From positions 2,446 through 66,445 of the forward strand of contig CAZCTP010000005.1 in assembly GCA_964501575.1 (NCBI GenBank): 64,000 bases of DNA, given 5' to 3'. Source of the stretch: an uncultured Thermodesulfobacteriota bacterium (GTDB taxonomy: Bacteria; Desulfobacterota; CAZCTP01). Position 1 is the first letter of the stretch; each line of letters begins with the position of its first letter. Shown one piece after another: positions 4,384 through 41,113 of the stretch. The notes beneath the pieces were generated by a model. That model was not told where the DNA came from, searched no databases, and was given only the letters and a program-made list of their open reading frames with translations. Made by a program: the position numbers and the translations under genes.

Positions 4384-4467
4384 TGCCGAAGGGGGGACTC
4401 GAACCCCCACAAGGTTGCCCTTACTAGATCCTGAATCTAGTGCGTCTCCCAATTCCGCCACTTCGGC
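4384..4467 (-). tRNA. tRNA-Leu (anticodon CAG), class II with a long variable arm; no encoded CCA
   Basis: The reverse complement folds as a cloverleaf: acceptor stem GCCGAAG/CTTCGGC, anticodon stem CTAGA/TCTAG with loop TTCAGGA, T arm GGGGG-TTCGAGT-CCCCC, discriminator A. It is GC-rich against the AT-rich genome. Confidence 0.85.
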
Positions 4468-6321: not shown

Positions 6322-6349
6322 TTGACTTTTAAGAACAATATTATATAAT
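6322..6349 (+). promoter_or_regulatory. Candidate sigma70-type promoter (TTGACT-N16-TATAAT) for the 6450-16590 operon
   Basis: The hexamers were read directly from the sequence, about 100 nt upstream of the SDR start. Confidence 0.35.
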
Positions 6350-6449: not shown

Positions 6450-7259
6450 ATGGGTATATTATCAAAAAAAATAGCAATTATTACAGGAGGGGGAACTGGC
6501 ATAGGGAAGGCTATCTCCCTTGCCTATGCTAAAGAAGGATGTGATCTCGTAATAGCTCAAAGAACCTATGAAGCAGCTAAGAGGATGTCTGATCAGATAA
6601 AGAGTATGGGAAGGAGGGCCCTGGCATTAAAAACCGATATATCCAAGAGTGAGGATATCCGTAACCTTGTAAAAACCACTTTAGAAGAATTTGGAAGGAT
6701 AGATATATTGGTTAATAATGCAGCAGTATTCTTTCCGGTTCCCTTCTTAGAAATTTCAGAAGAGGAATTGGATATGGTGCTGTCTATAAACCTTAAAGGA
6801 ACCTTCTTACTCAGTCAGGCAGTGGCTAAAGAGATGGTCAAGAGGAGGAAAGGTAAAATTATAAATGTAGGTGCAGGACAGTCTTTACTTGGCATCCCCT
6901 TCTTCTCCCACTATGCCTCCTCAAAGGGAGGAATAAATGCTTTAACCAGGAGTATGGCAGCAGAGCTATCTCCCTATGGTATATATGTAAATGTAGTATC
7001 ACCTGGATATATCCTCACTGATAAGGTAATAGAGCTTCTTCCCCCTGAATTTGCTCAGGCGTTGACAGAGGTTATAACATCTTCAACCCCTTTAGGGAGG
7101 CTTGCCACCCCAGAAGAATGTGCTGGTGCAGCACTATATTTAGCATCTGATGAAAGTAATGGAGTGACAGGACATATTATTCCGGTAGATGGGGGCTGGA
7201 GTTCTGCTGTAAATTTGAATGAGATGATAAACAAATATAAGGAAAGGAGAGATAAATGA
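6450..7259 (+). CDS. Short-chain dehydrogenase/reductase (SDR)
   Basis: TGGGTGIG Rossmann motif, NNAA, and a YASSK catalytic Tyr-x3-Lys. 269 aa. Confidence 0.85.
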   Translation: MGILSKKIAIITGGGTGIGKAISLAYAKEGCDLVIAQRTYEAAKRMSDQIKSMGRRALALKTDISKSEDIRNLVKTTLEEFGRIDILVNNAAVFFPVPFLEISEEELDMVLSINLKGTFLLSQAVAKEMVKRRKGKIINVGAGQSLLGIPFFSHYASSKGGINALTRSMAAELSPYGIYVNVVSPGYILTDKVIELLPPEFAQALTEVITSSTPLGRLATPEECAGAALYLASDESNGVTGHIIPVDGGWSSAVNLNEMINKYKERRDK

Positions 7260-8812
7260 TGAAAGAATACGATCTTATAGTGGTTGGTTCAGGTCATAAT
7301 GGATTAATAGGAGGATGTTACTTAGCAAAGTCAGGATTAAAGGTTTTGGTCCTGGAAAAGAGAGAAATTCTTGGAGGTGGAGCCACAACAGAAGAGCTTA
7401 CCCTTCCTGGATTTAAACACGATGCCTGTTCCAGTGAACATGTTCTTATATTCTTTGGGCCGGTTATTAAAGAGCTTGAATTGGAGACCAGATATGGACT
7501 TGAATACTATTTCCATCCGGTTCTCTATGGGGTAGGTTTTATGGATGGAACAAGTATAGCTATGTATAAAGAGGTTAAAAAAACATGTGAGAGTATAGCT
7601 AAAGTTTCAGAGAAAGACGCAGATACTTATTTGTCCCTTTATAACAAATTTTTAAGTATTAAAGAGCCATTTTTGTCTCAGTCTTTTTCTCCACCTGTAG
7701 ACCCATCTGTCTTCTTTGGTAACTTAGAAAGGGTAGAAGGGGGAAAGGAGTTAGCCAGGCTCGCTATGTTAAATCCAAAGGAGGTTTTAGACGAATTATT
7801 TGAGGATGAAAGAACAAAGGGTTTTATATATGGGATGAGTGGAGCTGCATTATTGAATAGTCCTGATGAATTTGGAAGTGGTCTATCCATCTTTATTACC
7901 CTGGGTCTTCAATATTATGGAAAGATAGGAAAGGCTGTTGGTGGTGCAGGGATGTTAACATATTCTTTAAGGAAATGTCTTGAGGATAATGGGGGCGAGA
8001 CAAGAGTTAATTCTGAAGTAGATAGGATTATTGTAGAGGATGGTAAGGCTTCAGGAGTAAAGTTAAAAGATGGAGAAATAATAAAAGCAAAGAAGGCTAT
8101 TCTTGTTAATAGCCCACCTCATCTTATTGTAAAAATGGTAGGCAAAGACTATGTAGGAGAGGATTTCAGCAGAAAGGCAGAGAATTTTAGATTCGGAACG
8201 GGGCTCTTTGCTATCCATTTGGCCTTAGATGGTGAGGTAAATTTCAATGCTTCTGAATTAAATGGATGTGGAGCAACTATAATCTATGAAACCCTTTCTC
8301 ACAGTCTCAAGTGTTTCAATGAATGTAAAGAGGGAAGGATACCATGGGATAATATCTGTCTTTATTTTACAAATTATAATCTTGGACTTTCGTCCAGGGC
8401 AAAGAGAGCTCCTGAAGGGAAAGCAGCTGCACTTCTTATGGGAATACCTGTTCCTGCATTCTTTTCTGATGGGTCATCATGGCACTTTCATAAGATGAAA
8501 TTTGCTGAAGCTCTTATTTCAAAGCTGGAAGAATATGCACCTAATATAAGATCCCTAATTATTAAAAGCAGGATTGAATCCCCATCAGATATTGAAAGGA
8601 GAATACCAGGAATGGTAGGAGGGGATATTATGATAGGAAGAAATTCTTTAGAACAGTACTTTTTTAGGCCATTTCCTGGATATACACATTATAGAACATC
8701 TATACCAAATCTTTATATGACAGGGGGAGCTACCTGGCCTTCTGGTGGAATTTCTGGAGCTTCGGGTTATAACGTTGCAAATATAATAAAAGAGGATTTG
8801 AATATCAGATGA
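7256..8812 (+). CDS. FAD-dependent oxidoreductase, phytoene-desaturase (CrtI)-like / COG1233 family
   Basis: N-terminal GxGxxG dinucleotide-binding motif (VVGSGHNGL) followed by VLE...GG. 518 aa. ATGA overlap with the SDR. Confidence 0.7.
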   Translation: MMKEYDLIVVGSGHNGLIGGCYLAKSGLKVLVLEKREILGGGATTEELTLPGFKHDACSSEHVLIFFGPVIKELELETRYGLEYYFHPVLYGVGFMDGTSIAMYKEVKKTCESIAKVSEKDADTYLSLYNKFLSIKEPFLSQSFSPPVDPSVFFGNLERVEGGKELARLAMLNPKEVLDELFEDERTKGFIYGMSGAALLNSPDEFGSGLSIFITLGLQYYGKIGKAVGGAGMLTYSLRKCLEDNGGETRVNSEVDRIIVEDGKASGVKLKDGEIIKAKKAILVNSPPHLIVKMVGKDYVGEDFSRKAENFRFGTGLFAIHLALDGEVNFNASELNGCGATIIYETLSHSLKCFNECKEGRIPWDNICLYFTNYNLGLSSRAKRAPEGKAAALLMGIPVPAFFSDGSSWHFHKMKFAEALISKLEEYAPNIRSLIIKSRIESPSDIERRIPGMVGGDIMIGRNSLEQYFFRPFPGYTHYRTSIPNLYMTGGATWPSGGISGASGYNVANIIKEDLNIR

Positions 8813-11085
8813 TTATGGATGAGTATTCGGTTATAGGGAAAAGATTACCCAGGGTAGATGGAGTGATGAAGGTTACTGGAAAAGCCAAATATACTACTGA
8901 TCTTGTATTACCTGGGATGCTACATGGAAAGATTATTAGGTCTCCCTACCCCCATGCCAGGATCCTTAATATAGATACTTCAAAGGCTGAAAAACTTTTG
9001 GGAGTGAGGACTATTATAAAGGGCTCAGATTTTAATGAAATTAAAATAGGGCTTTTTGGGGACCCTGCTCAACTCGATGAACCCTTTTTAGCAGTAGATA
9101 GAGTTAGATTCATAGGAGAAGGAGTGGCAGCAGTAGCAGCTATAGACGAGGAGATAGCGGAAGAGGCTTTAGAACTTATCAAGGTAGAATATGAAGAACT
9201 TCCTTCTCTATTTAGTATGGAGGAAGCTATAAAGGAGGGTTCTTATCAGATACATGAAGGAACTGAAAGAAATATAGCTATGTCATTTTCTTCAGGGTTT
9301 GGTGATATAGATAAAGGATTCAGAGAATCTTATTATATTAGAGAGGATAGATTCTCTCTATCTCCACTTAATTCATGCTCCATGGAGACTCTGGTATCTA
9401 TAGCTGATTTTACCCCTGATGGGAAATTATCCCTATGGAGTCCAACTCAGACTCCATTTTTCCTCCGTAAACAGTTATCCAGGGCTTTAAATATGAGAGA
9501 AGGAGATATAAGGGTTATAAATCCATTTATGGGAGGAGCACACTGTTCGACAAAACATGAGGCGTTAACCCATCATATTTCCTCAGCTTTACTTTCAAAA
9601 AAGGCAGGACATCCGGTAAAGATAGAATTAAGTAGAGAGGAGGTATTTAATATAAACAGAGGGGCTCCCCCTGTTACAATTTACATTAAAACAGGAGTTA
9701 AGAAAAATGGTGAGATTGTAGCCAAGAAATATGAAATAGAGGCAGACTGTGGGGCATATAAGGGTATGAGTCCCCTTTTCCTTTATCTTTCGTACCTTTA
9801 TGCAAATTTCCCTTATCGGCTTCAAAATCTCAAATACGAAGGAAGATTAATCTATACAAATAATCCTCCCAATGCTACCCAGAGAAGTTGTGGATTGGTT
9901 TCTATAAATATAGCCGATGAGTCCCACTTAGGCATAATTTCAGAAGAGCTCGGTATGGATCCCTTTGAAATAAGGCTTAAAAATGCTTTAAGGGAGGGTG
10001 ATATAACTAAACAGAGGGTCAGGATCACAAGCTGTGGACTCTCTGAATCTATCAGAATGGTCAGAGAGAAATTAGGCTGGAATGGAGATAGAGCAATAGG
10101 GGTAGCTTGCGAAGGTTGTCCATCAGGTGCTAAGGCCTTTCTTCCCCATGATACGTCTTCTGCCTTTATAAATATCCATGAAGATGGGACTGTTACTCTA
10201 TTTACAGGACTTCCAGAACTTGGTCAGGGGTCTGATACGGTCATGGCTCAGATTGCTGCAGAAATTTTAGGTGTTTCATTAGAGGATATTAAAGTAATCT
10301 CCGGAGATACCGAGGGTGCGCCTATGGATTTAGGGAGCTATGGAAGTAGAGGGACATTCCAGGGAGGGAATGCTGTTAAGAATGCTGCTTTAGATGCAAG
10401 AAGTCAGCTTCTAATGGCTGCTGCAGAAAAGCTTTCTGTTAAGATAGACGATCTTATAATAAGAGAGAGAAATATATGGGTTAAGAATGACCCTGGAAAA
10501 AGAATCTCTGTTGCTGAGGCTGTTGAGTTTAGCCAAAATATTGGAGGGAAACCTGTCATGGGTAAGGGCTATTATAACCCCTCTTCAGATTTTTTAGATC
10601 CTCTTACTTTCAAAGGAAACATTTCCTTAGCATATAGCTTTGGAGCTCATGGGGTTGAATTAAAAGTAGATGAAGAGACGGGAGAGGTTGGGGTAATCAA
10701 TTCTATAATGGCTCATGACTGCGGTTTTCCTCTTAATCCCATGTCTGTTGAGGGCCAGATAGAAGGACAGATTTCTCAAGGATTGGGGCAGGCATTCTTT
10801 GAAAGGCGTTTTCTTGAAAATGGTCAGCAATTGAATCCAAATTTGCTTGATTATAAAATTCCCACTTCTTTAGAGATGCCCCCTGTAACACCAATCTTAG
10901 TTGAGACCATAGATCCAAATGGGCCATTCGGAGCAAAGGAGTGTGGAGAAGGACCTCAAGTGGGATTTATTGGAGCTATAATAAATGCTGTTTATAAGGC
11001 TGTGGGGGTAAGGATAAAGAAGATTCCTTTGACTCCGGAGATTATCCTAAAAGCTATAGATGAGAAGAGAAGGAGGAGAAGATGA
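8809..11085 (+). CDS. Molybdopterin-dependent hydroxylase large subunit (xanthine dehydrogenase / aldehyde oxidase family, Mo-binding)
   Basis: 758 aa with the N-terminal a/b-hammerhead signature (GK.LPRVDG..KVTGKAKYT.D) and a long MoCo-binding domain. ATGA overlap with the upstream gene. Confidence 0.8.
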   Translation: MIMDEYSVIGKRLPRVDGVMKVTGKAKYTTDLVLPGMLHGKIIRSPYPHARILNIDTSKAEKLLGVRTIIKGSDFNEIKIGLFGDPAQLDEPFLAVDRVRFIGEGVAAVAAIDEEIAEEALELIKVEYEELPSLFSMEEAIKEGSYQIHEGTERNIAMSFSSGFGDIDKGFRESYYIREDRFSLSPLNSCSMETLVSIADFTPDGKLSLWSPTQTPFFLRKQLSRALNMREGDIRVINPFMGGAHCSTKHEALTHHISSALLSKKAGHPVKIELSREEVFNINRGAPPVTIYIKTGVKKNGEIVAKKYEIEADCGAYKGMSPLFLYLSYLYANFPYRLQNLKYEGRLIYTNNPPNATQRSCGLVSINIADESHLGIISEELGMDPFEIRLKNALREGDITKQRVRITSCGLSESIRMVREKLGWNGDRAIGVACEGCPSGAKAFLPHDTSSAFINIHEDGTVTLFTGLPELGQGSDTVMAQIAAEILGVSLEDIKVISGDTEGAPMDLGSYGSRGTFQGGNAVKNAALDARSQLLMAAAEKLSVKIDDLIIRERNIWVKNDPGKRISVAEAVEFSQNIGGKPVMGKGYYNPSSDFLDPLTFKGNISLAYSFGAHGVELKVDEETGEVGVINSIMAHDCGFPLNPMSVEGQIEGQISQGLGQAFFERRFLENGQQLNPNLLDYKIPTSLEMPPVTPILVETIDPNGPFGAKECGEGPQVGFIGAIINAVYKAVGVRIKKIPLTPEIILKAIDEKRRRRR

Positions 11086-11570
11086 GGAACTATATTGATG
11101 TAAATCCTAAACTCTGTAACGGATGCAGAATATGTATGATGGTATGTTCTTTAGAAAAATCTGGTAAGTTCAATCAATTTAATACCGGTATATGGATAGA
11201 ATCCGATGATTTTAAAGGGATAAATAATCCTTTTATCTGTAGACAATGCAAAAGACCGGTATGTGTGGAGGTATGTCCTGCAGAAAAGGCATGGAAAAAA
11301 CCCTATGATTTTGATCCTCCCATATGTAGGGATGAGAAGAGTGGAATAGTGTTTCTTGATACAAGGAAGGAGAGTTGTATAGGTTGCAATGAGTGTATGC
11401 TTTCATGTCCCTTTGGATCAATAAGAGTAAACTTTGAAGATGAGAATTTAGTAAAGTGTGATCTCTGTGGAGGAGATCCTGAATGTGTTAAATTTTGTCC
11501 AACCAGAGCAATTGAATTTGTAGAAATGAGAAAACTAAATCAGAAGAAAATTATGGTTAAGGAGGGATAA
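11082..11570 (+). CDS. 4Fe-4S polyferredoxin (AorA-like electron-transfer subunit)
   Basis: 162 aa with four CxxCxxCxxxC(P)-type clusters (CNGCRICMMVC, CRQCKRPVCVEVCP, CIGCNECMLSCP, CDLCGG..CVKFCP). It overlaps both neighbours. Confidence 0.75.
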   Translation: MRNYIDVNPKLCNGCRICMMVCSLEKSGKFNQFNTGIWIESDDFKGINNPFICRQCKRPVCVEVCPAEKAWKKPYDFDPPICRDEKSGIVFLDTRKESCIGCNECMLSCPFGSIRVNFEDENLVKCDLCGGDPECVKFCPTRAIEFVEMRKLNQKKIMVKEG

Positions 11571-11572
11571 GA

Positions 11573-13480
11573 ATGTATGGATGGGCAGGAATAATTCTTG
11601 ATGTTGACCTTTCTTCAGGAAGGATAGAGAAAAAGCCCTTTGAAGAGGAGTTAGGAGTTAAGTATATAGGGGGTAGAGGAATAAATTCGAGAATTCTATA
11701 TAATGAATTAAAGCCAGGGATTAATCCATTTAGTCCGGAGAATATTATTATATTTGGTACTGGGCCTTTAGCAGGGACTATTGCTCCATCTCCAAGCAAA
11801 CTAAATGTTACCGCAAAGGCTCATTATAATTACTTGGGGACATCCAATGCTGGGGGTAGATTTGCATCTGAGCTGAAATGGGCAGGATATGATCATATTA
11901 TTATGCGAGGCAAAGCCCCTGAACCTGTATATTTGTGGATTGATGATGATGTGATTGAGCTTAAGTCTGCCAAACATTTATGGGGTAAAGATACATGGGA
12001 AACTGAGAGAATAATAAAAGAGGAGCTTGGGGATAGGGATGTTAAGATAGCTTCAATAGGTCCTGCTGGAGAGAACCTTGTTACCTTTTCAAGTATCACT
12101 TTTTCTCTTTATAGATCAGCAGCACAGACCGGAATGGGAGCAATTATGGGCTCAAAAAACCTTAAAGGGATTGCTGTGAGGGGAACTAAAAGTATAGAAG
12201 TTGCCAAGCCTACCTCCCTTAAAAGATTGACCAAGGATATTATTGATAGAATGATGAAGAATCACACCTATTCCTTTATGTCGGTCCATGGGACCCCTGC
12301 CTTTACCTATTCATATAATGAAAGGGGAAATCTCTCTATAAGAAATTTCAGGAAGTCAGGTCATTGGGATAAAGTGGAAGCATTCTCCCTTGAGAATATA
12401 TTTAAATATTATACTGCGGATAGAGCCTGCTTTGGTTGTCCTATTCACTGCAGCCATTTCTTTGTCCTAAAAGAAGGAGAATTTGCAGGAGAAAGGGGAG
12501 GTGGCATAGAATTTGGTCATCTACTCCCATTAGGAATCTCTCTTGACAACTCTAATCTCCTATCAGTATTTAAGGCTACCAATCTCTGCAACCAATATGG
12601 TATGGATACTCTGGAATTTTCCTTTGTTTTAGGAGCTGCTATAGAATGGTATGGAAAGGGAATTATTACAGATAAAGATACAGATGGAATTCCATTGGAG
12701 TGGGGTGATTATAGAGTAATTATAGATATGATTCCAAAAATTGCTAAAAGAGAAGGATTAGGTGATATTCTGGCTCAGGGAGCTATTAAAGCTGCAAAGA
12801 TTTTAGGAAAAGGAGCAGAGGAATGTATAAGCCATTGTAAAGGGATGGCAGTGGCAGCAGATGATGTGAGGCTTTCAAAGGGGACTGCTTTGAGTCATGT
12901 TACAGGGACGATACCTGCTCACCATGAAGAGGGAATGCCCACCCCAGAACTTTATCCAATGGATGCTGAAAGAGCAAAAGAGCTATTTGGAACTACAGAG
13001 GTTATAAATCCTTTATCCTATGATAAGGCATTATGTGTGATCTATTATCAGAATCAGTGCACTTTATTTGATTGTATAGAGCTGTGTAAATTTATATCTG
13101 AGTGGTTCGGTCAGGAAGTAATATTTAAAGATGTAGCTGAGCTATTCTCCTCGGCTACCGGTATCGATATAGATGCAAAGGATATGGAGATGGTTGGAGA
13201 GAGGGTTCATACCTTGGAAAGGGCGTTTAATGTAAGAGAGGGAATGAGAAGAGAGGATGATCATATGCATGGAAGAATAGTAAAAGAAGCCACTCAATCA
13301 GGACCCTTTAAAGGGGAGAGACTGGAACCTGAGAAATTTGAAGAGATGCTGGATAAATATTATGACTTGAGGGGATGGGATAAAAAGACAGGAATACCTT
13401 TAAGAAGTAAATTTAAAAAGGTAGGGCTTGAAGATATAGCAGAAGATCTGGAGAAAATAGGGATACCCCTGGAGGATTGA
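11573..13480 (+). CDS. aor: Tungsten-type aldehyde:ferredoxin oxidoreductase (AOR family)
   Basis: 635 aa matching the AOR family N- and C-terminal domains; the Cys ligand motif is CFGCPIHC. The SD is AAGGAGGG. Confidence 0.85.
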   Translation: MYGWAGIILDVDLSSGRIEKKPFEEELGVKYIGGRGINSRILYNELKPGINPFSPENIIIFGTGPLAGTIAPSPSKLNVTAKAHYNYLGTSNAGGRFASELKWAGYDHIIMRGKAPEPVYLWIDDDVIELKSAKHLWGKDTWETERIIKEELGDRDVKIASIGPAGENLVTFSSITFSLYRSAAQTGMGAIMGSKNLKGIAVRGTKSIEVAKPTSLKRLTKDIIDRMMKNHTYSFMSVHGTPAFTYSYNERGNLSIRNFRKSGHWDKVEAFSLENIFKYYTADRACFGCPIHCSHFFVLKEGEFAGERGGGIEFGHLLPLGISLDNSNLLSVFKATNLCNQYGMDTLEFSFVLGAAIEWYGKGIITDKDTDGIPLEWGDYRVIIDMIPKIAKREGLGDILAQGAIKAAKILGKGAEECISHCKGMAVAADDVRLSKGTALSHVTGTIPAHHEEGMPTPELYPMDAERAKELFGTTEVINPLSYDKALCVIYYQNQCTLFDCIELCKFISEWFGQEVIFKDVAELFSSATGIDIDAKDMEMVGERVHTLERAFNVREGMRREDDHMHGRIVKEATQSGPFKGERLEPEKFEEMLDKYYDLRGWDKKTGIPLRSKFKKVGLEDIAEDLEKIGIPLED

Positions 13481-13482
13481 GT

Positions 13483-13785
13483 ATGAAATCAGTTGAGGTA
13501 AGGCCATTTTTTAACCTGAGAAATATTATTAGAAAGGAGAGAGTAGAAATAGAGATAAAAAATGGGTTTACTGTTAGAGAGGTTATAGATAGACTGATAG
13601 ACTTATACGGTCCTTCCCTCAGAGATGCCCTTATAGACCCTGAAAGAGGGGATATACGTTCCTTTTACTGGATTCTTCTTAATGGAATGGATATCAGAGC
13701 ATTAGAGAAAGGGATAGATACTGAACTTAAGGGTGGAGAGATAATATCCATCATGCAATCCGTTGCAGGGGGTAAATTAAATTAA
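13483..13785 (+). CDS. MoaD/ThiS-like small protein with a C-terminal extension after Gly-Gly
   Basis: About 100 aa, ending ...SVAGGKLN. The ATG at 13483 sits 6 nt after GGAGGA; the tabulated TTG at 13477 is less likely. Confidence 0.5.
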   Translation: MKSVEVRPFFNLRNIIRKERVEIEIKNGFTVREVIDRLIDLYGPSLRDALIDPERGDIRSFYWILLNGMDIRALEKGIDTELKGGEIISIMQSVAGGKLN

Positions 13786-13799
13786 AAAAGGGGGTAAAT

Positions 13800-15011
13800 A
13801 TGAAAAGGGTATTATTAATAATCTCTATTTTGTGTTTATTTTTCAATATTTCCTTTGCAAAGGAGATAAAACCAGGGGTTGTTATAACAAAGGACAATTA
13901 TAAAGAATATCTTCCGGAGTTAAAGAGACTTATGACGAAATCTATGTTTAAGATTCATGTAGAGATAGAGGTTAAGAATGGATTGAAGACCATGCCTATT
14001 GTTGAGAGGGAGAAGTGGCTTTCCAAAAAGGGTTATAGGGATGCTACAAAGAAGTATTCCGGTAGATGTAAGATAGGTCCTAATATGGAGCTATTGAATT
14101 ATGTGGCTGGTGCCCCTTTCCCAAATCCAAAGAACGGGATAGAGTTAGCATGGGATATACAGCATACAATAACCTATGAGCAAGCGCATTTTATGGGTGA
14201 TTATGACCTCTATGATAAAGACAGGAAACCGGAAAGGAGGGTATCCAATAACTTCGGAGTAATTAAGTACATAGGGAGAACCTTTAATCCTCCAATGCCT
14301 GAGATAAAGCCTAATCCGGAGAGAATATGGTGGAAACTGTTCCAATATGTCACGTATCCCTTTGATGCAAGAGGATTTATTGTAACAAGAAAAAGATATC
14401 TTGATATAAAAAAGGAGGATGATATGTGGGCATACCTACCTACATTAAGGAGAATTAGGAGACTTACAGGGGCAGATGTTCAGGATCCTTTACTTGGGTC
14501 AGACTACTGTATAGACGATTATTCTGGGTGGACCCAGAGAGTAAATCCAAAGGTTATGAGCTTTAAATTCTTAGGGGAGAGAGAAATTCTATTCCCTTCC
14601 TATCATGTAGAAGATAAACCCTTTCCCATTACCCCTGAGGAATATTTAAAGGATAAAGGTGGAGCCCTTCAGGTGCCATGGTGTAAGATAAGGGTCTATA
14701 TTCTTGAGGTTGACATGCATGATCCCACATACATGTATAGTAAGAGATTACTATATGTTGATAGAGATATTGGAGATTTCAGACCTATACATGAGGAGTG
14801 CTTTGACCAGAGGGGAAGGCTGTGGAGAACTCAGGAGAATATGCAAAGAGCCTATACTTATAGGGAAAGCCATTGCTGGCCTATATCAATAGTTAGAGAC
14901 CATCAGTCCGGACACTATACTATGATCCCTCTCTATAAGCAATACCTAGATGATCCTAATTTGACGCCATCCTATTTTGAGATAAGACAGCTCATAAAGA
15001 GGGGGAGATAA
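13800..15011 (+). CDS. Secreted DUF1329-like protein (LolA-like fold predicted)
   Basis: 403 aa with a signal peptide (MKRVLLIISILCLFFNISFA) and an N-terminal ITKDNYKEYLP segment resembling DUF1329. SD GGGGGT. Confidence 0.5.
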   Translation: MKRVLLIISILCLFFNISFAKEIKPGVVITKDNYKEYLPELKRLMTKSMFKIHVEIEVKNGLKTMPIVEREKWLSKKGYRDATKKYSGRCKIGPNMELLNYVAGAPFPNPKNGIELAWDIQHTITYEQAHFMGDYDLYDKDRKPERRVSNNFGVIKYIGRTFNPPMPEIKPNPERIWWKLFQYVTYPFDARGFIVTRKRYLDIKKEDDMWAYLPTLRRIRRLTGADVQDPLLGSDYCIDDYSGWTQRVNPKVMSFKFLGEREILFPSYHVEDKPFPITPEEYLKDKGGALQVPWCKIRVYILEVDMHDPTYMYSKRLLYVDRDIGDFRPIHEECFDQRGRLWRTQENMQRAYTYRESHCWPISIVRDHQSGHYTMIPLYKQYLDDPNLTPSYFEIRQLIKRGR

Positions 15012-15048
15012 AACTATAATATTTGATAAATAAATAAAGGAGGATAAG

Positions 15049-16590
15049 ATGGAGAATTATGACATAATAATCTGTGGGGGAGGACATAACGGGCTTACAT
15101 GTGGGGCGTATCTTACTAAAGCAGGGCTTAGTGTTTTAGTAGTGGAAAGGCGTCCTGTGGTTGGTGGAGGGGTTGTTACAGAAAGTATATTTTCAGATAA
15201 AGGCTTTAAGGTAGATTTAGGAGGACATGCCCATGCTCTAATCCAGGCAAATCCTATGATAACAGATAATGAACTTGAATTAGATAGATTTGGTCTTGAA
15301 TATATATATCCAGAGTATCTATACGGACATCCATTTCTTGATGGCTCTTATATAATTCAATCCAGAGATGTAAATAAAACGTGTGATAGCTTGGCAAAAT
15401 TTTCCCAGAGGGATGCATCATCATTCTTAGAACTTTATAATCTATTCTTAAAATTTAAGGATATGATAGTTACTCTCCTCTTCTCTCCACCTCCTCCCTT
15501 AAGTGAAATGATAAAGGGTTTAGAAAGCAGTGAAGATGGTAGAGAATTATTAAGAATAATGCTTCAGAGCCCGATAGATTTTGTCAATGAAAGGTTTGAG
15601 AATGATAAGGTAAAGGCATGGCTTTACTGGTGGGGACTTCAGATAGGAGGAAGGCCTGATCAGGAGGGAACAGCCCTGTTATTTATGTGTTTACTTACCC
15701 TTGTTCAGCATTTTGGGTTCGGATATCCCAAGGGGGGTGGAGGGAAATTGAGTGAAGCCCTGGCTAAATATATTACCTCAAATGGAGGGACTATAAGAAC
15801 AAATGCAAAGGTTAAAAGGGTAATAGTAGAGAATGGAAGGGCTAAGGGTATAGAACTTTCTGATGGAGAGATTATATTTGCAAAGAAAGGAATAGTCTCA
15901 AATATTCATTTAAAGCTTCTATTCCCTGAGATGGTGGGAAGAGAGAATGTATCATCTTCATTTATTAAGAGTGTAGAGAGATTTAAAATAGGATTTTCAG
16001 GTTTTGGAATACATCTTGCTCTGAATGAAGCTTTAAGATTCAAGGTAGAGGAGATAAATAAATGCTCTGTCTTCGCAGTTGCTGAAAGTGTTAGCGATGT
16101 TTTAGAGAATTATGATGATATAGTAAAGGGAAATCCCTTTAGCAAAGAACCTCTTGTAATTGGAGTCTGTTCTACTATAGATGATCCCACAAGAGCTCCT
16201 GATGGAAAGCATGTGCTATTCCTATTTAGATTTGTCCCCTACAATATAGGAAATATGAAGTGGAAAGGTGCAAGGGAGAAGGTAGCTGGTGATATGATGG
16301 AAAAGCTCAAAAGGTATGCTCCAAATATGGATGATAAGAATATAATAGGTAAATTTATTGATGATCCAGTTACCATAGAGGCACGGAATCCATGTATGAT
16401 CCGCGGAGATATCTTTCAGGGTGATATATCCCTGTATCAGTTTGGTCCTATGAGGCCATTGATAAGGTTTAATTATAAGATGCCTGTTGAGGGGCTCTAT
16501 CTCTGTGGACCCTCTACCCATCCAGGAGGATCGGTAACTGGAGGGGGAAGAGCCTGCGCAAAGGCTGTATTAAAGGATTTAGGATTATAA
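15049..16590 (+). CDS. FAD-dependent oxidoreductase, phytoene-desaturase (CrtI)-like, paralog of 7256-8812
   Basis: ICGGGHNGL GxGxxG motif. 513 aa. SD AAGGAGGA. Confidence 0.7.
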   Translation: MENYDIIICGGGHNGLTCGAYLTKAGLSVLVVERRPVVGGGVVTESIFSDKGFKVDLGGHAHALIQANPMITDNELELDRFGLEYIYPEYLYGHPFLDGSYIIQSRDVNKTCDSLAKFSQRDASSFLELYNLFLKFKDMIVTLLFSPPPPLSEMIKGLESSEDGRELLRIMLQSPIDFVNERFENDKVKAWLYWWGLQIGGRPDQEGTALLFMCLLTLVQHFGFGYPKGGGGKLSEALAKYITSNGGTIRTNAKVKRVIVENGRAKGIELSDGEIIFAKKGIVSNIHLKLLFPEMVGRENVSSSFIKSVERFKIGFSGFGIHLALNEALRFKVEEINKCSVFAVAESVSDVLENYDDIVKGNPFSKEPLVIGVCSTIDDPTRAPDGKHVLFLFRFVPYNIGNMKWKGAREKVAGDMMEKLKRYAPNMDDKNIIGKFIDDPVTIEARNPCMIRGDIFQGDISLYQFGPMRPLIRFNYKMPVEGLYLCGPSTHPGGSVTGGGRACAKAVLKDLGL

Positions 16591-31074: not shown

Positions 31075-32220
31075 ATGTTTTTAGAGCTTACTCAGGATGA
31101 AAGGAGTATTAGAGATATAGCTAAAAGATTTGCTAGAGAGAAGGTTTTTCCAAGAGCTAAAGAGATAGATGAAGGAGATGAATATCCAGAGGATTTATTT
31201 AAGCTTTTAGCAGAGATGGGATATTTTGGGATGATAGTCCCAGAGAAATATGGAGGGGTAGGAGGTAGTCTATTGTCCCTATGTTTGGTGATAGAAGAGC
31301 TTGCAAAGGTATGCGGGTCTACCTCTTTAAATGTTGGTGTTCAAACCGGAGGTATGATGCCAATTATTATTGCCGGGAATGAAGACCAAAAACAGGGATA
31401 TCTTCCTAAGCTTGCGGCTGGTGAATATATATCTGCATTGGCAATTACAGAACCGGATGCAGGTTCTGATGTTTCCTCTATAAAGACAAAGGCTTATTTA
31501 GATGGGAATGAGTGGGTTATAAGTGGTAATAAATGTTTTATAACCAATGGGGGAGTTGCTCATATATATTCAGTTTTTGCGAAAACAGATCCAGAACTTG
31601 GAAGGAAAGGAATAAGTGTATTTCTGGTTGAAAAGGAGAGGAGAGGACTATATTTTGGTAAAGTTGAAAATAAAATGGGTATGAGAGGTTCAAGGACATC
31701 CGAAGTAATTTTTGATAATCTAAGAATACCTGAGGGAAATATGCTTGGGAAGAGAGGAGATGGTTTTAAGATAGCTATGGAAACCTTAAGGATAACAAGG
31801 CCTACAATTGCTGCTCAGGGAGTTGGTATTGCACAGGGAGCATTTGAATATGCATTGAGTTATGCAAAGGAAAGGAAACAGTTTGGAAAGCCTATTACCT
31901 CATTTCAGGCAATCCAGTTTATGCTTGCAGATATAGCAACAGAGATTGAAGCAGCAAGGCTCCTTGTTTATAAAGCTGCATCTCTTATTGATAGAGGTGA
32001 AGAAGATATAGCAATGATAAGCTCCATGGCAAAGAGGTTTGCAACCGATGTTGCCATGAAGACAACAATAGATGCTGTTCAAATTCTTGGAGGATATGGA
32101 TACATGAAGGATCATCCAGTAGAAAGGATGATGAGGGATGCAAAGCTCCTACAGATATATGAAGGGACAAATCAGATTCAGAGAAATATAATAGCAAAGG
32201 AGTTGATTAAAGATGTCTAA
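31075..32220 (+). CDS. Acyl-CoA dehydrogenase
   Basis: 381 aa with the ACAD N-terminal, middle and C-terminal domains, including the catalytic Glu region near the C-terminus (YEGTNQIQ). Confidence 0.85.
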
Positions 32221-32692
32221 GTTAACCCATTTTGATGATCAGGGAAGGTCAAAAATGGTGGATATTACGGATAAGGATATTACAAATAGAGAGGCTGTAG
32301 CTTCATGTTATGTAATTGTAAATCCTGATACATTTAGTCTTATAGTAAATAAAGAGATAGAGAAGGGAGACGTATTTGAAGTTGCAAGAATAGCCGGTAT
32401 AATGGGGGGTAAAAAGACAGGTGAACTTATTCCAATGTGTCATCCATTGAATATTACATCCATTGATATAAAGTTCTATCCTGTAAATGAGGAGAGCAAG
32501 ATAAAGGTGGAGTCTACAGTAAAAATAGTTGGTAGAACTGGGGTTGAGATGGAAGCCTTAATATCTGCTACTATAGCTGCACTTACAATATATGATATGT
32601 GTAAAGGGGTAGATAAAGGGATAACAATAACAGATATAAAGCTTATAAGTAAAAAGGGGGGTAAAAGCGGGGATTTCTTCAGGGAATCCTGA
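32213..32692 (+). CDS. moaC: Cyclic pyranopterin monophosphate synthase accessory protein
   Basis: 159 aa, all of which align to MoaC. It overlaps the ACAD stop. Confidence 0.85.
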
Positions 32693-34083: not shown

Positions 34084-34869
34084 CTATCTTCTGAATTTAG
34101 AGAAGTCAGGTTTTCTCTTTTCAAGAAATGCATTCTGTCCTTCTAGTGCCTCACCAGTCTTAAAATAATCCGGGGCTAACATCCTTTGATAGGAGAGAGG
34201 GTCATGTCGCATATAATCAAATTCACTCTCGAAGGTCGCTTTCAAAACTCTTAAACATGTGGGGCTCATAGAGAGTATCTCCTGGCACCATTTATCTACT
34301 TCTTCATCTAACTTCTCCATAGGTACAACAGCATTTACAAGCCCCATTTCAAGAGCTTCCTTTGCAGTATATCTCCTACACAAATACCACATCTCCCTTG
34401 CTTTTTTTGCTCCGATTACTCTTACAAGATAACTTACAATATATCCACCAGCAGGGCTTCCAACCCTTGGTCCGTTTTGACCAAATATAGCATGTTCCGC
34501 TGCAATGGTTAAATCACAATAGTATGCTACATGATTTCCCCATCCTATTGCATATCCATTAACTCTTGCAATAACAGGTTTTAGACAGTTTCTTATTGCA
34601 TTATGAATATCTATGTAATAGTCCCATATATCTGGAAAACCTTTATTTTTTTCCCAATTTATATCTCCTCCGGCACAGAATGCTTTATCTCCAGCTCCTG
34701 TCAGAACAACCACACCTATTGTTTTGTCATCGGTGGCATCATGAAATGCCTTTATCATCTCGAGCATTGTTTCATCCGTAACAGCATTCCGGACATGAGG
34801 ACGATTGATAGTTATTCTTGCAACTCCATCCTTCTTTTCATATATTATATCCTTAAAATCCAGTCCCAT
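34084..34869 (-). CDS. MenB/BadI-family crotonase (1,4-dihydroxy-2-naphthoyl-CoA synthase-like)
   Basis: High similarity to MenB over the whole length (LTGAGDKAFCAGGD, GYAIGWG, C-terminal KRKPDFSKF). Confidence 0.75.
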   Translation of the reverse strand: MGLDFKDIIYEKKDGVARITINRPHVRNAVTDETMLEMIKAFHDATDDKTIGVVVLTGAGDKAFCAGGDINWEKNKGFPDIWDYYIDIHNAIRNCLKPVIARVNGYAIGWGNHVAYYCDLTIAAEHAIFGQNGPRVGSPAGGYIVSYLVRVIGAKKAREMWYLCRRYTAKEALEMGLVNAVVPMEKLDEEVDKWCQEILSMSPTCLRVLKATFESEFDYMRHDPLSYQRMLAPDYFKTGEALEGQNAFLEKRKPDFSKFRR

Positions 34870-34880
34870 ATAAAACCTCC

Positions 34881-35219
34881 TTAAAAATATTTAACTATAT
34901 CATTCATTATATCAAAACCTGCTCCACCAGAAAATACTATACCCACTCCAATAGCCTCTTTTATCTCTTCCTTTTTTGCACCAAGCTCATAGGCAATCGG
35001 TATATAATAGGGGAATATGTTATTCAGCCTCATAGCAGTGGCTATGCTTAAAGCCATAAGAACCTTAGTCTTTCTATCCAGAGCTCCATCACCCATTAGT
35101 TTATTTCTCATAAGCAAATAACCTTCCAATATATCTGGAAACTTATCTGCAACTGGTCTAACCTTATCTGGTAGCGAATTTGATATTTCCTTGAGTATAT
35201 TTAGTATATTTTCATTCAT
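34881..35219 (-). CDS. Carboxymuconolactone decarboxylase (AhpD-like) family protein
   Basis: 112 aa with the CMD-domain pattern. It is contiguous with the UbiD stop. Confidence 0.55.
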   Translation of the reverse strand: MNENILNILKEISNSLPDKVRPVADKFPDILEGYLLMRNKLMGDGALDRKTKVLMALSIATAMRLNNIFPYYIPIAYELGAKKEEIKEAIGVGIVFSGGAGFDIMNDIVKYF

Positions 35220-36719
35220 TTAAATCCTCCTCTCAGCCATACTCTTAGCATATGGAGATTGCATTGCTCTTCCCTTATTTATCTCATTATCTGTGAACCA
35301 TCTTTTCAGGTCAACCTTTGGATGTTTCCCCAGTCTAAATTTCCATTTATTGGCATACGGGATCGTCGCATCAATTCCTATTACAGAGGCAAGTCCTATT
35401 CTACCTGGATCATCAGCTTTCTCTGTTGGAAAGTTGGCTGTTCCCCTTATATCATTCAATATCACGTAATCACTGGCTGGATCAGCTCTTGTCATTATAG
35501 CCCAAAGTACTTCCTCCGGATCATATATATTTACATCCTCATCCACTATAACAACCATTCTTAAACCGGCAAGTGCTGTAAATGCAGAAAGGATAATATT
35601 CTTCTGATATCCTTCGTCCCTCCTCCTCCTTTTCTTTACCTGGATTACTATTCCACCAAAGGATTTCATACCATCTAATATATGGGTATCTATAACAAGT
35701 CCAGGACATATTCTATTACCCACATCATACATAGATGCTTCCCTTAAGAAACTACATATATTGTTGCCATCGATAGAATGGGCAAGGGGAGTAAAGAATA
35801 TCGGGTCATCTCTATGGGTTATGGCTGTAGCTTGAAATTTATATGTTTTATAGGATTTTCCGAGATAGCCAGGATATTCCGGGAAGAAAGGGGCCTTTCC
35901 AATCTCCCCCAATTTTTTTGCCTCCTCACTTTCCCATACCGTCTCCTTTGTATCAACATACCCTTCAATAACCCATTCGGCACAGGCAAGTGCATAGGCA
36001 TCAACTGTTTTAGCATTGACTATCTCAACAGGAGTTCCCTGAAGCGCACCAGCTATACCCAATTCATTACATCCAACAGGTACTGAAATCTTCATTCCGC
36101 CACCACCTGCTGCAATCCATATTGCGGGAGATGTACATATATTTATTGTTAATGGTAGTCTGCCTTTATTATCTGCAGTCCTTAATACATGATGCTCAAA
36201 ATGGGTATTAAGATTTATTGATAGACTTGACCAATCTTTACCCTGAAAGTGGGCTCTATTAAATGATATATGAAAGCCGCTTTCAGGGTTTCCTACCAAG
36301 GTATTCCCTCCTCCTAAAATTCTTCCTGCATCCTCTTCAGTATGTTTTATTATAGGTAGTGTAGCAAGAACATCTATACCCTTTGTAATAACATTCTTCT
36401 GGGACGGAGCGCTGTCCACAACTGTTGGATTTAGGGGATTCTTCATTGCATCAAGACACTTAAATTTGAATTTTCTATGGTCATCAATATCAAATATCCT
36501 TGCTACTCTTTCTCTCTTAGCACATATATTTGTTGTTATTTTATGTCCAGGATATCCCTTTATATTCTCAAACAGAAGGGCTGGCCCCCCATCAAATGCC
36601 TTTGCAATACCAGATACTTCATATATTGGATCAACTTCATTCTTCACAACAAATATATCACCGATATCTTTTAAGTATTCAATTGTAGACCTTGTACTTG
36701 TAATATCTTTCTTAGCCAT
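35220..36719 (-). CDS. UbiD-family (prFMN-dependent) reversible decarboxylase
   Basis: 499 aa aligning across the full UbiD fold. Confidence 0.8.
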   Translation of the reverse strand: MAKKDITSTRSTIEYLKDIGDIFVVKNEVDPIYEVSGIAKAFDGGPALLFENIKGYPGHKITTNICAKRERVARIFDIDDHRKFKFKCLDAMKNPLNPTVVDSAPSQKNVITKGIDVLATLPIIKHTEEDAGRILGGGNTLVGNPESGFHISFNRAHFQGKDWSSLSINLNTHFEHHVLRTADNKGRLPLTINICTSPAIWIAAGGGGMKISVPVGCNELGIAGALQGTPVEIVNAKTVDAYALACAEWVIEGYVDTKETVWESEEAKKLGEIGKAPFFPEYPGYLGKSYKTYKFQATAITHRDDPIFFTPLAHSIDGNNICSFLREASMYDVGNRICPGLVIDTHILDGMKSFGGIVIQVKKRRRRDEGYQKNIILSAFTALAGLRMVVIVDEDVNIYDPEEVLWAIMTRADPASDYVILNDIRGTANFPTEKADDPGRIGLASVIGIDATIPYANKWKFRLGKHPKVDLKRWFTDNEINKGRAMQSPYAKSMAERRI

Positions 36720-36740
36720 ATTTGTTCCTCCTTCAATAAG

Positions 36741-37076
36741 TTATACTTCAAAAGCCAAATTTTTAAACCCTTTCTGGCAGTCTCTATCCAGAGATCCACC
36801 AGCAACTCCAGGAATAAATGATATTGTGTCATTATCCTTTAATATTCTATTTAACATTTCTTCAGAATTTGCAGATATACCATTAAGAAGTATAGAGATT
36901 CCAGGAATCCCTGTTTTTGGATTTATAATAATACTTCTCTTAAATTCTTCCCCGTATTTCTTGATAATAATATCTATAAATTCTCTCAAGTTAACCTCTT
37001 TATTAAGAGTAAAAATTTCCACCTCCTTTCCTATTATATTCTTAAGACTCAGATAATATTTAACTTCAACTTTCAT
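36741..37076 (-). CDS. MoaD/ThiS-like small protein with a 17-aa tail after Gly-Gly
   Basis: ...FIPGVAGG followed by SLDRDCQKGFKNLAFEV. It overlaps the upstream AOR by 11 nt. Confidence 0.5.
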   Translation of the reverse strand: MKVEVKYYLSLKNIIGKEVEIFTLNKEVNLREFIDIIIKKYGEEFKRSIIINPKTGIPGISILLNGISANSEEMLNRILKDNDTISFIPGVAGGSLDRDCQKGFKNLAFEV

Positions 37077-38928: not shown

Positions 38929-39141
38929 GATTCCTCCTTAAAATAAAAATATTTATTGAAAGCATTCAACAGATCCATAGAGCCTTAAATATTTAAAAAT
39001 CATCTTGATTTATATAAAAAAACCTCCTCAATTCTTATATTATCATTTTATTTAAAAAGTTATAAATTTCTCTTTTCTAAAAAATCTGTTCTAAATGTCA
39101 AAATCTCAGAAATATAATATCTAATATTCCAACTATACACT

Positions 39142-39927
39142 TCATATATCCACCACTTCATTAACAATATTGACAGGGGTCCCTATATAAAACCTCTTCC
39201 TACTTATAATAGGAATTTTTATCCTGTTGAGATCTACTATTGCTTCAGCCATTTTGATCCCTGTAATCATCGGGTCTACAATTGGCACTCCATCTATCTC
39301 AAATATACCCATCTTTGTCAACATAGGTGATAGCAGACCACATCCTGCTATTATAACATCAGCACCATCATCAATACAGGAATAGGCAACTTCTTCGAAG
39401 CTTTCTATAGCAAGCTTATAATCACCTACTACACACCCAAAGAATTCCTGAGAAGAAAGTCTAATAGATCTTACAGGATTATTTGCAATTACCTGCTTTT
39501 CCATCCTATATTTATGAATATTTTCCTCAATTTCTCCTATATAGTTAGGATCAGATGTCACAATAGCAAATCTTTTACCTAAGATAGAGGCAAAATGCAT
39601 TGATGATTCAGCAATTCCAATAACAGGTATGTTCATTAGTTGACGGAGTGCAAAGAGGGATGGGTCAAAGAAACATGTTATTACAAGGGCATCATATCCT
39701 TCCTTCTCACTTTTTAAAGCATTCTTAAGTATATCTCTGTCATTTAAGAATCTCAATCCTGGAAAGGATATAAACTCAGGATTTAAACCCCTATCCAGAG
39801 CCTTTATTACTATCTCAGTATCGGGCCTTTTTACCATATTATGGCATTCCTTAACTGTGTTTATATAGGGCTTAAATATCTTTGATTCAAGATCCATTTT
39901 TGCTGGAAGCTGACACCATATTCTCAT
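39142..39927 (-). CDS. Asp/Glu/hydantoin racemase family protein
   Basis: Pattern ALVITCFFDPSL...IPVIGIAESS, resembling hydantoin racemase / arylmalonate decarboxylase family members. The ATG lies 5 nt after GGAGG, which is embedded in the ACAD 3' end. Confidence 0.55.
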   Translation of the reverse strand: MRIWCQLPAKMDLESKIFKPYINTVKECHNMVKRPDTEIVIKALDRGLNPEFISFPGLRFLNDRDILKNALKSEKEGYDALVITCFFDPSLFALRQLMNIPVIGIAESSMHFASILGKRFAIVTSDPNYIGEIEENIHKYRMEKQVIANNPVRSIRLSSQEFFGCVVGDYKLAIESFEEVAYSCIDDGADVIIAGCGLLSPMLTKMGIFEIDGVPIVDPMITGIKMAEAIVDLNRIKIPIISRKRFYIGTPVNIVNEVVDI

Positions 39928-41097: not shown

Positions 41098-41113
41098 TTT
41101 TAAACCTCCTTTT

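Follow-up and report, generated by a model that had tools for sequence, protein, structure and literature searches.

The window analyzed here, a 64-kb stretch of DNA from an uncultured, anaerobic Thermodesulfobacteriota bacterium of low GC content (about 36%), holds between positions 6450 and 16590 an operon in which a lone molybdenum (Mo) large subunit of the xanthine dehydrogenase (XDH) family is combined with an aldehyde oxidoreductase (AOR), two flavoproteins and a secreted protein of the DUF1329 family. Where a first-pass annotation of this DNA had counted nine genes, we found eight open reading frames (ORFs) of at least 100 aa, all on the forward strand; the Joint Genome Institute annotation adds two tiny ORFs downstream of the operon. 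The first gene (6450–7259) encodes a classical short-chain dehydrogenase/reductase (SDR) of 269 aa (adh_short_C2, E = 4.5e-62). It is followed by flavoprotein 1 (7256–8812, 518 aa), a CrtI/CrtO-like member of COG1233 with NAD_binding_8 and Amino_oxidase domains, and by the Mo subunit (8809–11085, 758 aa), which carries three Pfam domains and resembles HcrA. Next come a polyferredoxin of the AorA/WOR5-S type with four [4Fe-4S] motifs (11082–11570, 162 aa), the catalytic subunit of the AOR family (11573–13480, 635 aa; AFOR_N, 2.9e-72; AFOR_C, 1.1e-106) and a MoaD/ThiS-like protein, a putative AorD-like maturation factor (13483–13785; TIGR01687, 51.6 bits, cutoff 49.5; ThiS, 1.3e-6), which has 100 aa when started at the ATG at 13483 and 102 aa when started at an alternative TTG at 13477. 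The operon ends with the secreted DUF1329/LolA-like protein (13800–15011, 403 aa; DUF1329, 5.7e-41; LolA_like, 2.3e-18) and flavoprotein 2, also of COG1233 (15049–16590, 513 aa; Amino_oxidase, 1.2e-16). Profile searches against Pfam and NCBIfam agreed with the earlier family calls for all the operon proteins.

ATGA overlaps lie at 7256, 8809 and 11082, exactly where the first-pass annotation had put them, and its AOR/MoaD junction, a TGA at 13478–13480 followed by the ATG at 13483, was found as well. The chain of overlapping stop and start codons that it described is only partly so: all junctions are operon-tight, but only some overlap. The TAA of the polyferredoxin gene is separated by 2 nt from the ATG at 11573, and the DUF1329 and flavoprotein 2 genes begin after gaps of 14 and 37 nt, the non-overlapping spacers ranging overall from 2 to 37 nt. 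At six of the seven junctions, a purine-rich, Shine-Dalgarno-like stretch is found a short way before the start codon; the exception is the flavoprotein 1/Mo junction (8809), where it is weak and more distant. Such overlaps are ordinary in bacterial operons, and they show co-translation, not the single stoichiometric assembly that had been read from them. Terminator-like sites were not enriched in the operon region (8 found, 9.8 expected from shuffles). Upstream of the operon, the best promoter candidate is a sigma-70-like TTGACT-16-TATAAT on the forward strand at 6322–6349, which agrees with the consensus at 11 of 12 positions; in DNA so rich in AT, it counts as no more than a consensus match. 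An Rfam search of the 367-nt leader upstream of the operon returned no RNA element.

The flanking genes are housekeeping genes, with GroEL, IleRS, LspA and RibF encoded upstream and PFOR downstream. The GC content at third codon positions (GC3) is 0.27–0.39 in the operon genes and 0.24–0.25 in the flanking genes, and because it is higher in the operon it suggests that the operon is acquired DNA, set between ribF and the PFOR gene.

The Mo subunit and the His-Cys clade

The Mo subunit has the architecture of the XDH family (Pfam Ald_Xan_dh_C, 3.2e-30; MoCoBD_1, 5e-56; MoCoBD_2, 2.2e-71). Its nearest solved structure is the alpha subunit of 4-hydroxybenzoyl-CoA reductase, HcrA (1rm6_A, E = 6.9e-149), to which its AlphaFold2 (AF2) model (predicted template modeling score 0.82) shows a template modeling (TM) score of 0.91 at 38% identity. 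With TIGR03194, the HcrA equivalog model, it scores 677.1 bits, below the cutoff of 994.55; the scores with the models of selenium-dependent XDHs are lower (322 and 291 bits). The absence of a 2Fe-2S or FAD partner, noted in the first-pass annotation, held up over the whole 64-kb window, where tblastn with CoxS/CoxM-type subunits gave a best E of 0.75. In this the protein differs from HcrA, which comes with beta (FAD/[4Fe-4S]) and gamma (two [2Fe-2S]) subunits in HcrABC.

Gln214, Arg359 and Glu714, which we take to correspond to bovine Q767, R912 and the catalytic E1261, are kept in the Mo subunit and are conserved in 111, 117 and 114 of 120 homologues, respectively. Around them, three motifs have changed. 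The cofactor loop reads GGAHCSTK against the canonical GGGFGGK (residues 795–801 of bovine XDH); in the alignment, its His takes the place of F798 and its Cys that of G799, two positions that presumably line the Mo cofactor. The second motif is RSCG where others have RG[HFYW]G, and the third is KECGEG, with an extra Cys (Cys712) two residues before Glu714. The corresponding motifs of HcrA are GGGFGAR, RGHG and KEASEG. In addition, the cofactor loop of the window protein carries a one-residue insertion absent from its relatives, and G360S departs from a Gly that is 99% conserved. At clade-invariant sites the protein deviates by 10.2%, within the range of 0.5–11.4% of its relatives, and its branch is not unusually long. 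Judged by the kept catalytic residues, the normal divergence and the HcrA-like model, the Mo protein looks functional. A decaying gene was considered and rated low, given its intact frame of 758 codons together with those residues and that range.

The closest homologues found by BLASTP, P0002–P0007 and P0009, are 50–57% identical to the window protein, and the clade members group together in a neighbor-joining tree. In this clade, the loop GG[GA]H-C[SG]K replaces the near-universal GGGFGGK. This His-Cys loop was found only in the window protein, P0002–P0006, P0009 and P0376, and P0007 has a related GGGNC. Two more signatures mark the clade, RG[S/M]G in place of an aromatic residue and KEC[G/S]EG. 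The motif is rare: it occurs in two of the best 150 representatives from a library of 1.84 billion proteins. We also scanned 80 genome and 80 metagenome loci with Mo relatives of 39–47% identity, among the matches listed (the scope of all counts over 160 loci given below), a set that does not contain the close clade members; the His-Cys motif was in none of them. We found no description of the His-Cys clade in the literature.

In P0002, P0003 and P0004 the Mo gene is directly followed by yqeB (TIGR03309, 342–359 bits, cutoff 220), in loci L002 (10001–13165), L003 (6417–9513) and L169 (216–3459). Because these genes are directly followed by that of a bona fide YqeB, a maturation protein of the selenium-dependent Mo cofactor, part of the His-Cys clade may depend on selenium, in the manner of the selenium-dependent Mo hydroxylases associated with YqeB, YqeC and SelD. 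The window differs from these three relatives, as no YqeB homologue was found in its 64 kb (YqeC and SelD were not searched for). We considered the His-Cys loop as a general mark of selenium-dependent hydroxylases and ruled it out, since nicotinate dehydrogenase, a selenium-dependent enzyme of solved structure (3hrd_A), has the canonical GGGFGGK.

Gene neighborhoods of the Mo relatives

The first-pass annotation had the Mo subunit sitting on the polyferredoxin and the AOR as one assembly. The neighborhoods speak against this: neither the 160 loci of relatives nor the other six loci of the clade include one with a Mo gene beside a polyferredoxin and an AOR gene, and the AOR module occurs without a Mo gene. 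In a single one of the 160, an AOR-like gene (30% identical) lies about 7 kb from the Mo gene. The usual neighbors are the small subunits, with an adjacent 2Fe-2S subunit in 135 loci and an FAD subunit in most; DUF1329 stands beside the Mo gene in none. A 2Fe-2S subunit is likewise encoded in all clade relatives' loci in which the flanking DNA reaches far enough (L003, L168, L169 and L174), the window being the exception.

Within the clade, other neighbors recur. An SDR gene adjoins the His-Cys Mo gene in six of seven loci (the window, L002, L003, L168, L173 and L174), the SDR of the window being 44–45% identical to those of L002, L003 and L168 and 35–36% identical to those of L173 and L174. 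A DUF1329/LolA-like gene is present in three of the seven (the window, L168 and L173), and a COG1233 flavoprotein in two, the window and L168 (39% identical to flavoprotein 2). The fullest arrangement is that of L168, with the gene order MMPL, SDR, FAD subunit, 2Fe-2S subunit, His-Cys Mo, Asp/Glu-racemase-like, DUF1329, an unknown protein of 499 aa and COG1233. The order in L173 is LolA-like/DUF1329, SDR (overlapping the next gene) and Mo; in L174, SDR, Mo, SDR, 2Fe-2S and FAD subunits; and in L169, Mo, YqeB and 2Fe-2S subunit. L002 and L003 share the order UbiD genes, ParA-like, Mo, SDR, His-Cys Mo and YqeB, after which L003 continues with genes for a 2Fe-2S subunit, another Mo subunit and FAD subunits. 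Conservation of the neighborhood, proposed earlier as a check on the coupling of the genes, thus gives a divided answer: the coupling of Mo and AOR looks like a local rearrangement, but the association of SDR, Mo, DUF1329 and flavoprotein recurs on unrelated contigs. As a separate observation, the upstream halves of L002 and L003 share a conserved set of two UbiD-family genes, a ParA/MinD-like ATPase and small unknown proteins, with two or three Mo large subunits next to it, and this UbiD/ParA cluster resembles putative anaerobic arene carboxylase clusters.

The polyferredoxin-AOR-MoaD module

The best matches of the polyferredoxin in the PDB are Fe-S partner subunits from solved AOR complexes, 9mqx_E (5.8e-25), AorA (8c0z_C, 1.4e-23) and WOR5-S (6x6u_B, 1.2e-17). 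It has the 16 motif Cys and one extra Cys, and it is 61–63% identical to the polyferredoxins of two AOR loci without a Mo gene, L171 and L172, the shared core being free of indels. We looked for a docking adaptation particular to the window protein, and compared with these loci there is none beyond the one extra Cys. The catalytic subunit has both AFOR domains and the [4Fe-4S] motif CxxCxxxC (CFGCPIHC, residue 286) of the AOR family. It matches 1aor_A (6.7e-109, 368 bits) better than AorB (8c0z_A, 292 bits) and is thus closer to the archaeal-type AOR. Tungsten is presumed as its metal from family membership, since the sequence does not decide between metals. Its nearest relatives, 56–61% identical, lie in AOR-polyferredoxin-ThiS modules without a Mo gene in L171 and L172 (Dehalococcoidia).

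The module is like AorABC(DE) of Aromatoleum aromaticum and WOR5 of Pyrococcus furiosus in having polyferredoxin, AOR and MoaD-like genes in one operon, with the order aorA-aorB-...-aorD. In A. aromaticum the order is aorA-aorB-aorC-aorD/E, and AorD and AorE are MoaD-like maturation factors (PMC6365974). The window operon differs from this system in that AorC (the FAD subunit) is missing and the Mo hydroxylase gene runs into the beginning of the aorA-like gene. Neither an AorC-like nor a NuoF-like gene was found in the operon, so that it is not of the three-subunit AorABC type; with AorA- and AorB-like genes present and the AorC-like gene missing, the module resembles the two-subunit WOR5 type. 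Polyferredoxin, AOR and MoaD-like protein thus make up a portable, self-sufficient module, with no support from conservation for its wiring to the Mo subunit.

Some further observations concern AOR modules and their cofactors. L171 carries, between 1854 and 8490, three tandem AOR paralogues (one of them interrupted by a stretch of N), a single polyferredoxin gene and a single ThiS gene, and this cluster adjoins a flavoprotein gene and a fragment resembling 2-hydroxyacyl-CoA dehydratase. The window encodes two MoaD/ThiS-like proteins, in which residues follow the Gly-Gly (AGGKLN in that of 13483–13785, AGGSLDRDC... in that of 36741–37076), and which, if they are sulfur carriers, would need C-terminal processing. 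Genes for the pterin cofactor in the window are moaC (32213–32692, forward strand) and moeA (59741–60943, reverse strand). No tungstate or molybdate transporter was recognized in the window.

The flavoproteins and the DUF1329 protein

Flavoproteins 1 and 2 are paralogues of 38% identity with five genes between them. CrtO is the best curated model for both, and both score far below its cutoff of 1000 (258.7 and 328.6 bits). The AF2 model of flavoprotein 2 (predicted local distance difference test score 93) has the CrtI-type fold; the solved structures nearest to it are 17–18% identical, the best being 4rep (TM 0.82, 18% identity). Cys, His and Tyr are all able to form covalent links to flavins. 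Among COG1233 enzymes that work in pairs on hydrocarbons, only limonene dehydrogenase (CtmAB) and the steroid delta-24 desaturase have been characterized; both subunits of either enzyme carry a covalently attached flavin (PMC4109377, PMC11061730). In the desaturase, covalent flavin mononucleotide (FMN) was mapped to the His of the motif G-F-[LR]-x-[NS]-[TL]-H-A, which is also found in both CtmAB subunits (PMC11061730). At the position of this His, flavoprotein 1 has a Cys (GFKHDACS) and flavoprotein 2 a Gly (GFKVDLGG, within motif residues 52–63). Across 124 family members the residue is mostly Cys (36), His (32), Ala (23), Gly (15) or Tyr (11), and a His four residues further on is nearly invariant. 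The COG1233 family may therefore be a mixture of covalent and non-covalent flavoproteins.

A relative of flavoprotein 2 with 71% identity, P0122, heads a tandem COG1233 array on a contig of the same sample (L005, 10001–15085; GC 35.4%, the same as in the window). The array, also seen in L004 and L006, comprises at least three COG1233 genes, a fourth beginning at the contig end. It adjoins SdhA/SdhB-like and AMP-ligase genes, and its paralogues 2 and 3 carry the flavin-binding His. This array, seen in three samples, is probably from the window organism or a close relative.

The DUF1329 protein scores 141.5 bits with PF07044 (cutoff 23.1) and 66.9 bits with LolA_like. Its N-terminus, MKRVLLIISILCLFFNISFA, is hydrophobic and signal-like when judged by eye, ending SFA-KE. 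LolA is encoded in the window, therefore the cell has a periplasm and an outer membrane, and a periplasmic location of the DUF1329 protein makes sense. In L168 and L173, the Mo relatives have distant homologues of it as neighbors; when the DUF1329 protein was used by itself to scan metagenomes, no relatives came up. Among the annotated ORFs of the window there is neither a DUF1302 outer-membrane partner nor an RND/MMPL transporter of the AmeACD kind.

Proposed function of the operon

The operon is mosaic, put together from three modules that also recur on their own in other loci. We would take the first as the SDR, the His-Cys Mo subunit and the putative periplasmic carrier of the DUF1329/LolA-like kind, often with a COG1233 flavoprotein; the second as an aldehyde oxidoreductase of the AorA/AorB/AorD type, made of polyferredoxin, presumed tungsten catalytic subunit and MoaD-like factor; and the third as a paralogous COG1233 pair of the kind of CtmAB and the delta-24 desaturase. 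Our tentative reading, which we regard as quite possible though short of probable, is that the operon serves to oxidize, independently of oxygen, a hydrophobic compound that is probably isoprenoid or alicyclic, by separate enzymes acting in series and with the Mo partners encoded elsewhere. The secreted DUF1329 protein would carry the substrate across the periplasm, and the flavoproteins would dehydrogenate it or hydroxylate it adjacent to a C=C bond. The Mo enzyme, probably using 2Fe-2S and FAD subunits encoded elsewhere in the genome, would then add oxygen derived from water and the SDR would oxidize the alcohol (C-H to C-OH to C=O). Finally, the AOR would turn an aldehyde intermediate into the acid, with the electrons passing through its own polyferredoxin to ferredoxin.

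Two known systems resemble this scheme. In the limonene pathway of Castellaniella defragrans, CtmAB hydroxylates limonene and an alcohol dehydrogenase and then an aldehyde dehydrogenase lead to perillic acid (PMC4109377); the DUF1329 protein AmeB is required for growth on monoterpenes (PMC6394551). The window operon shares with this system (CtmAB, GeoA, GeoB and AmeB) the two COG1233 paralogues, an alcohol step, a step from aldehyde to acid and the periplasmic DUF1329 protein. It differs from it in having a Mo enzyme, in using an AOR in place of an NAD-dependent dehydrogenase for the aldehyde, and in lacking the CtmE/F ferredoxin and reductase. Its flavoproteins, encoded by non-adjacent genes and without the flavinylated His, are shorter (513 and 518 aa, compared with about 549 and 565) and more alike (38% mutual identity, compared with 27%). 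In Sterolibacterium denitrificans, the sterol side chain is activated by the delta-24 desaturase and then by a Mo hydroxylase (PMC11061730). The likeness here is in the succession of a CtmAB-like flavoprotein pair, a water-dependent Mo hydroxylase (at C26) and an oxidation toward the acid; both subunits of that desaturase bind FMN covalently through the His that is Cys or Gly in the window. The sterol Mo enzyme belongs to the DMSO reductase family (steroid C25 dehydrogenase type) and not to the XDH family.

These two precedents, together with the recurring set of SDR, Mo, DUF1329 and flavoprotein, fit the lipophilic, possibly isoprenoid substrate that had been put forward from the sequence, though with separate enzymes and not with one assembly. 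The statement that the combination is not a characterized pathway also stands: a literature search on the three-enzyme combination returned nothing. All the parts come from known families.

Several points weigh against an isoprenoid or alicyclic oxidation route. No gene of the operon could be recognized as one for a substrate-specific enzyme, and it has neither a CoA ligase nor a ring-cleavage gene. The two flavoprotein genes are not adjacent, their products have Cys and Gly in place of the published flavin-binding His, and a ferredoxin system of the CtmE/F type is not present. Furthermore, their likeness to CtmA/CtmB and the delta-24 desaturase was judged from the published motif and descriptions. 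AOR reactions are reversible, so that step could run either way. That the Mo partner is supplied in trans is our assumption, no 2Fe-2S or FAD subunit being encoded in the 64 kb. The UbiD-type (de)carboxylases of the clade loci L002 and L003 point to aromatic substrates, and the closest characterized enzymes, HcrA and urolithin C dehydroxylase (Ucdh), remove phenolic hydroxyl groups reductively.

Only a few cultured denitrifiers are known to attack terpenoids, steroids and other greasy hydrocarbons in the absence of oxygen. To judge by the operon, strict anaerobes may arrive at the same chemical logic (dehydrogenation by a flavoprotein, hydroxylation with water, oxidation of the alcohol and of the aldehyde) from different parts. 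It also points to a rare, uncharacterized clade of the XDH family with a rewritten active-site loop, a consistent pairing with an SDR and often a neighbor like a lipid carrier.

An aromatic or phenolic route seems unlikely to us. Here a phenolic or aryl acid would be the substrate of the Mo enzyme, either as a reductive dehydroxylase like HcrA or Ucdh or as a ring hydroxylase. The AOR would turn aryl aldehyde into acid or the reverse, the SDR would act on the benzylic alcohol, and the flavoproteins would serve as ene-reductases or dehydrogenases. HcrABC (of Thauera aromatica) and Ucdh are indeed the best matches of the Mo subunit in sequence and structure, the nearest characterized homologue being the alpha subunit of 4-hydroxybenzoyl-CoA reductase; moreover, a ParA-like protein and a pair of UbiD-family enzymes are encoded in the clusters of the clade members P0003 and P0004, other operons of the window contain two UbiD genes and a second AOR gene, and strong expression of a DUF1329 protein has been seen in a culture that degrades benzene. 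Nevertheless, the Mo subunit scores far under the HcrA equivalog cutoff (677 against 994.55), its active-site loops are unlike those of HcrA, and the operon lacks a CoA ligase. The experimental links of COG1233 pairs and DUF1329 are to terpenes and steroids, and L168 joins a clade Mo gene with MMPL, DUF1329 and COG1233 and no UbiD.

We consider quite unlikely a hybrid Mo/W enzyme in which, in this lineage, the polyferredoxin has taken over from the 2Fe-2S and FAD subunits, so that Mo subunit, polyferredoxin and AOR would form one complex on a shared [4Fe-4S] chain; either two oxidations would feed one wire, or low-potential electrons from the aldehyde would drive an HcrA-like reduction at Mo. 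The ATGA overlap with a strong AGGAGG couples the Mo gene to the polyferredoxin gene, which lies 2 nt from that of the AOR, and the window lacks the 2Fe-2S/FAD subunit that clade relatives with enough DNA possess. The AorC/NuoF-like third subunit of solved AorA-type complexes is also missing here, which would leave one end of the wire free, and HcrA-type enzymes require low-potential electrons. Set against this, the adjacency of Mo, polyferredoxin and AOR was seen nowhere else among the relatives' loci listed and the clade loci, the polyferredoxin has no insertion or extension relative to those of Mo-less AOR loci, and translational coupling is common between unrelated neighbors in operons. 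AOR-polyferredoxin pairs of the WOR5 type (structures 6x6u and 6x1o) work without a third subunit, and we know of no XDH-family enzyme that works without [2Fe-2S] clusters. To the docking of Mo on the polyferredoxin one may add, as an independent feature, that the clade-specific His and two Cys, in place of F798, G799 and the residue two before the catalytic Glu, would build a modified Mo center, for example with selenium or a second metal, hinted at because the relatives' genes adjoin yqeB; we give this combination a similarly low probability. If true, the hybrid would be the first XDH-family enzyme without [2Fe-2S] clusters, and use of the polyferredoxin by an orphan Mo subunit would change the view of possible electron wiring in the family.

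Finally, an incidental mosaic, in which the AOR module was inserted into an older SDR/Mo/DUF1329/flavoprotein cluster, the FeS and FAD genes were deleted and the Mo protein is inactive or decaying, could account for the unique arrangement, the raised GC3 suggesting acquired DNA, the loop insertion and G360S, but is a little less likely still in view of the intact reading frame, the strong Shine-Dalgarno sequence at the polyferredoxin overlap (that of the Mo gene's own start at 8809 being weak), the kept catalytic Gln, Arg and Glu, the divergence within the clade range and the presence of the same Mo protein on at least two contigs.

Other features of the window

A second catabolic cluster lies on the reverse strand at 34084–42145 and comprises DHDPS-like, acyl-CoA dehydrogenase, Asp/Glu-racemase-like, AOR, ThiS/Urm1-like, UbiD-family, CMD-family and enoyl-CoA hydratase genes. 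Its AOR (620 aa) is 33% identical to that of the operon and is paired with the ThiS-like gene. The racemase-family protein (39142–39927, reverse strand; Pfam Asp_Glu_race) is 47% identical to the protein encoded immediately after the Mo relative in L168, and because of this match the second cluster and the operon may serve one pathway. The two UbiD-family decarboxylase genes of the window (52126–53604, forward strand; 35220–36719, reverse strand) are 28% identical to each other and stand in separate contexts.

In the rest of the 64-kb window, the sole Rfam or ARAGORN match is a tRNA-Leu(CAG) gene (4384–4467, reverse strand), between a flavin reductase gene and ribF, and no riboswitch was found. 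A single ORF at 49542–51272 on the forward strand fuses proteins B and A of the AmmeMemoRadiSam system.

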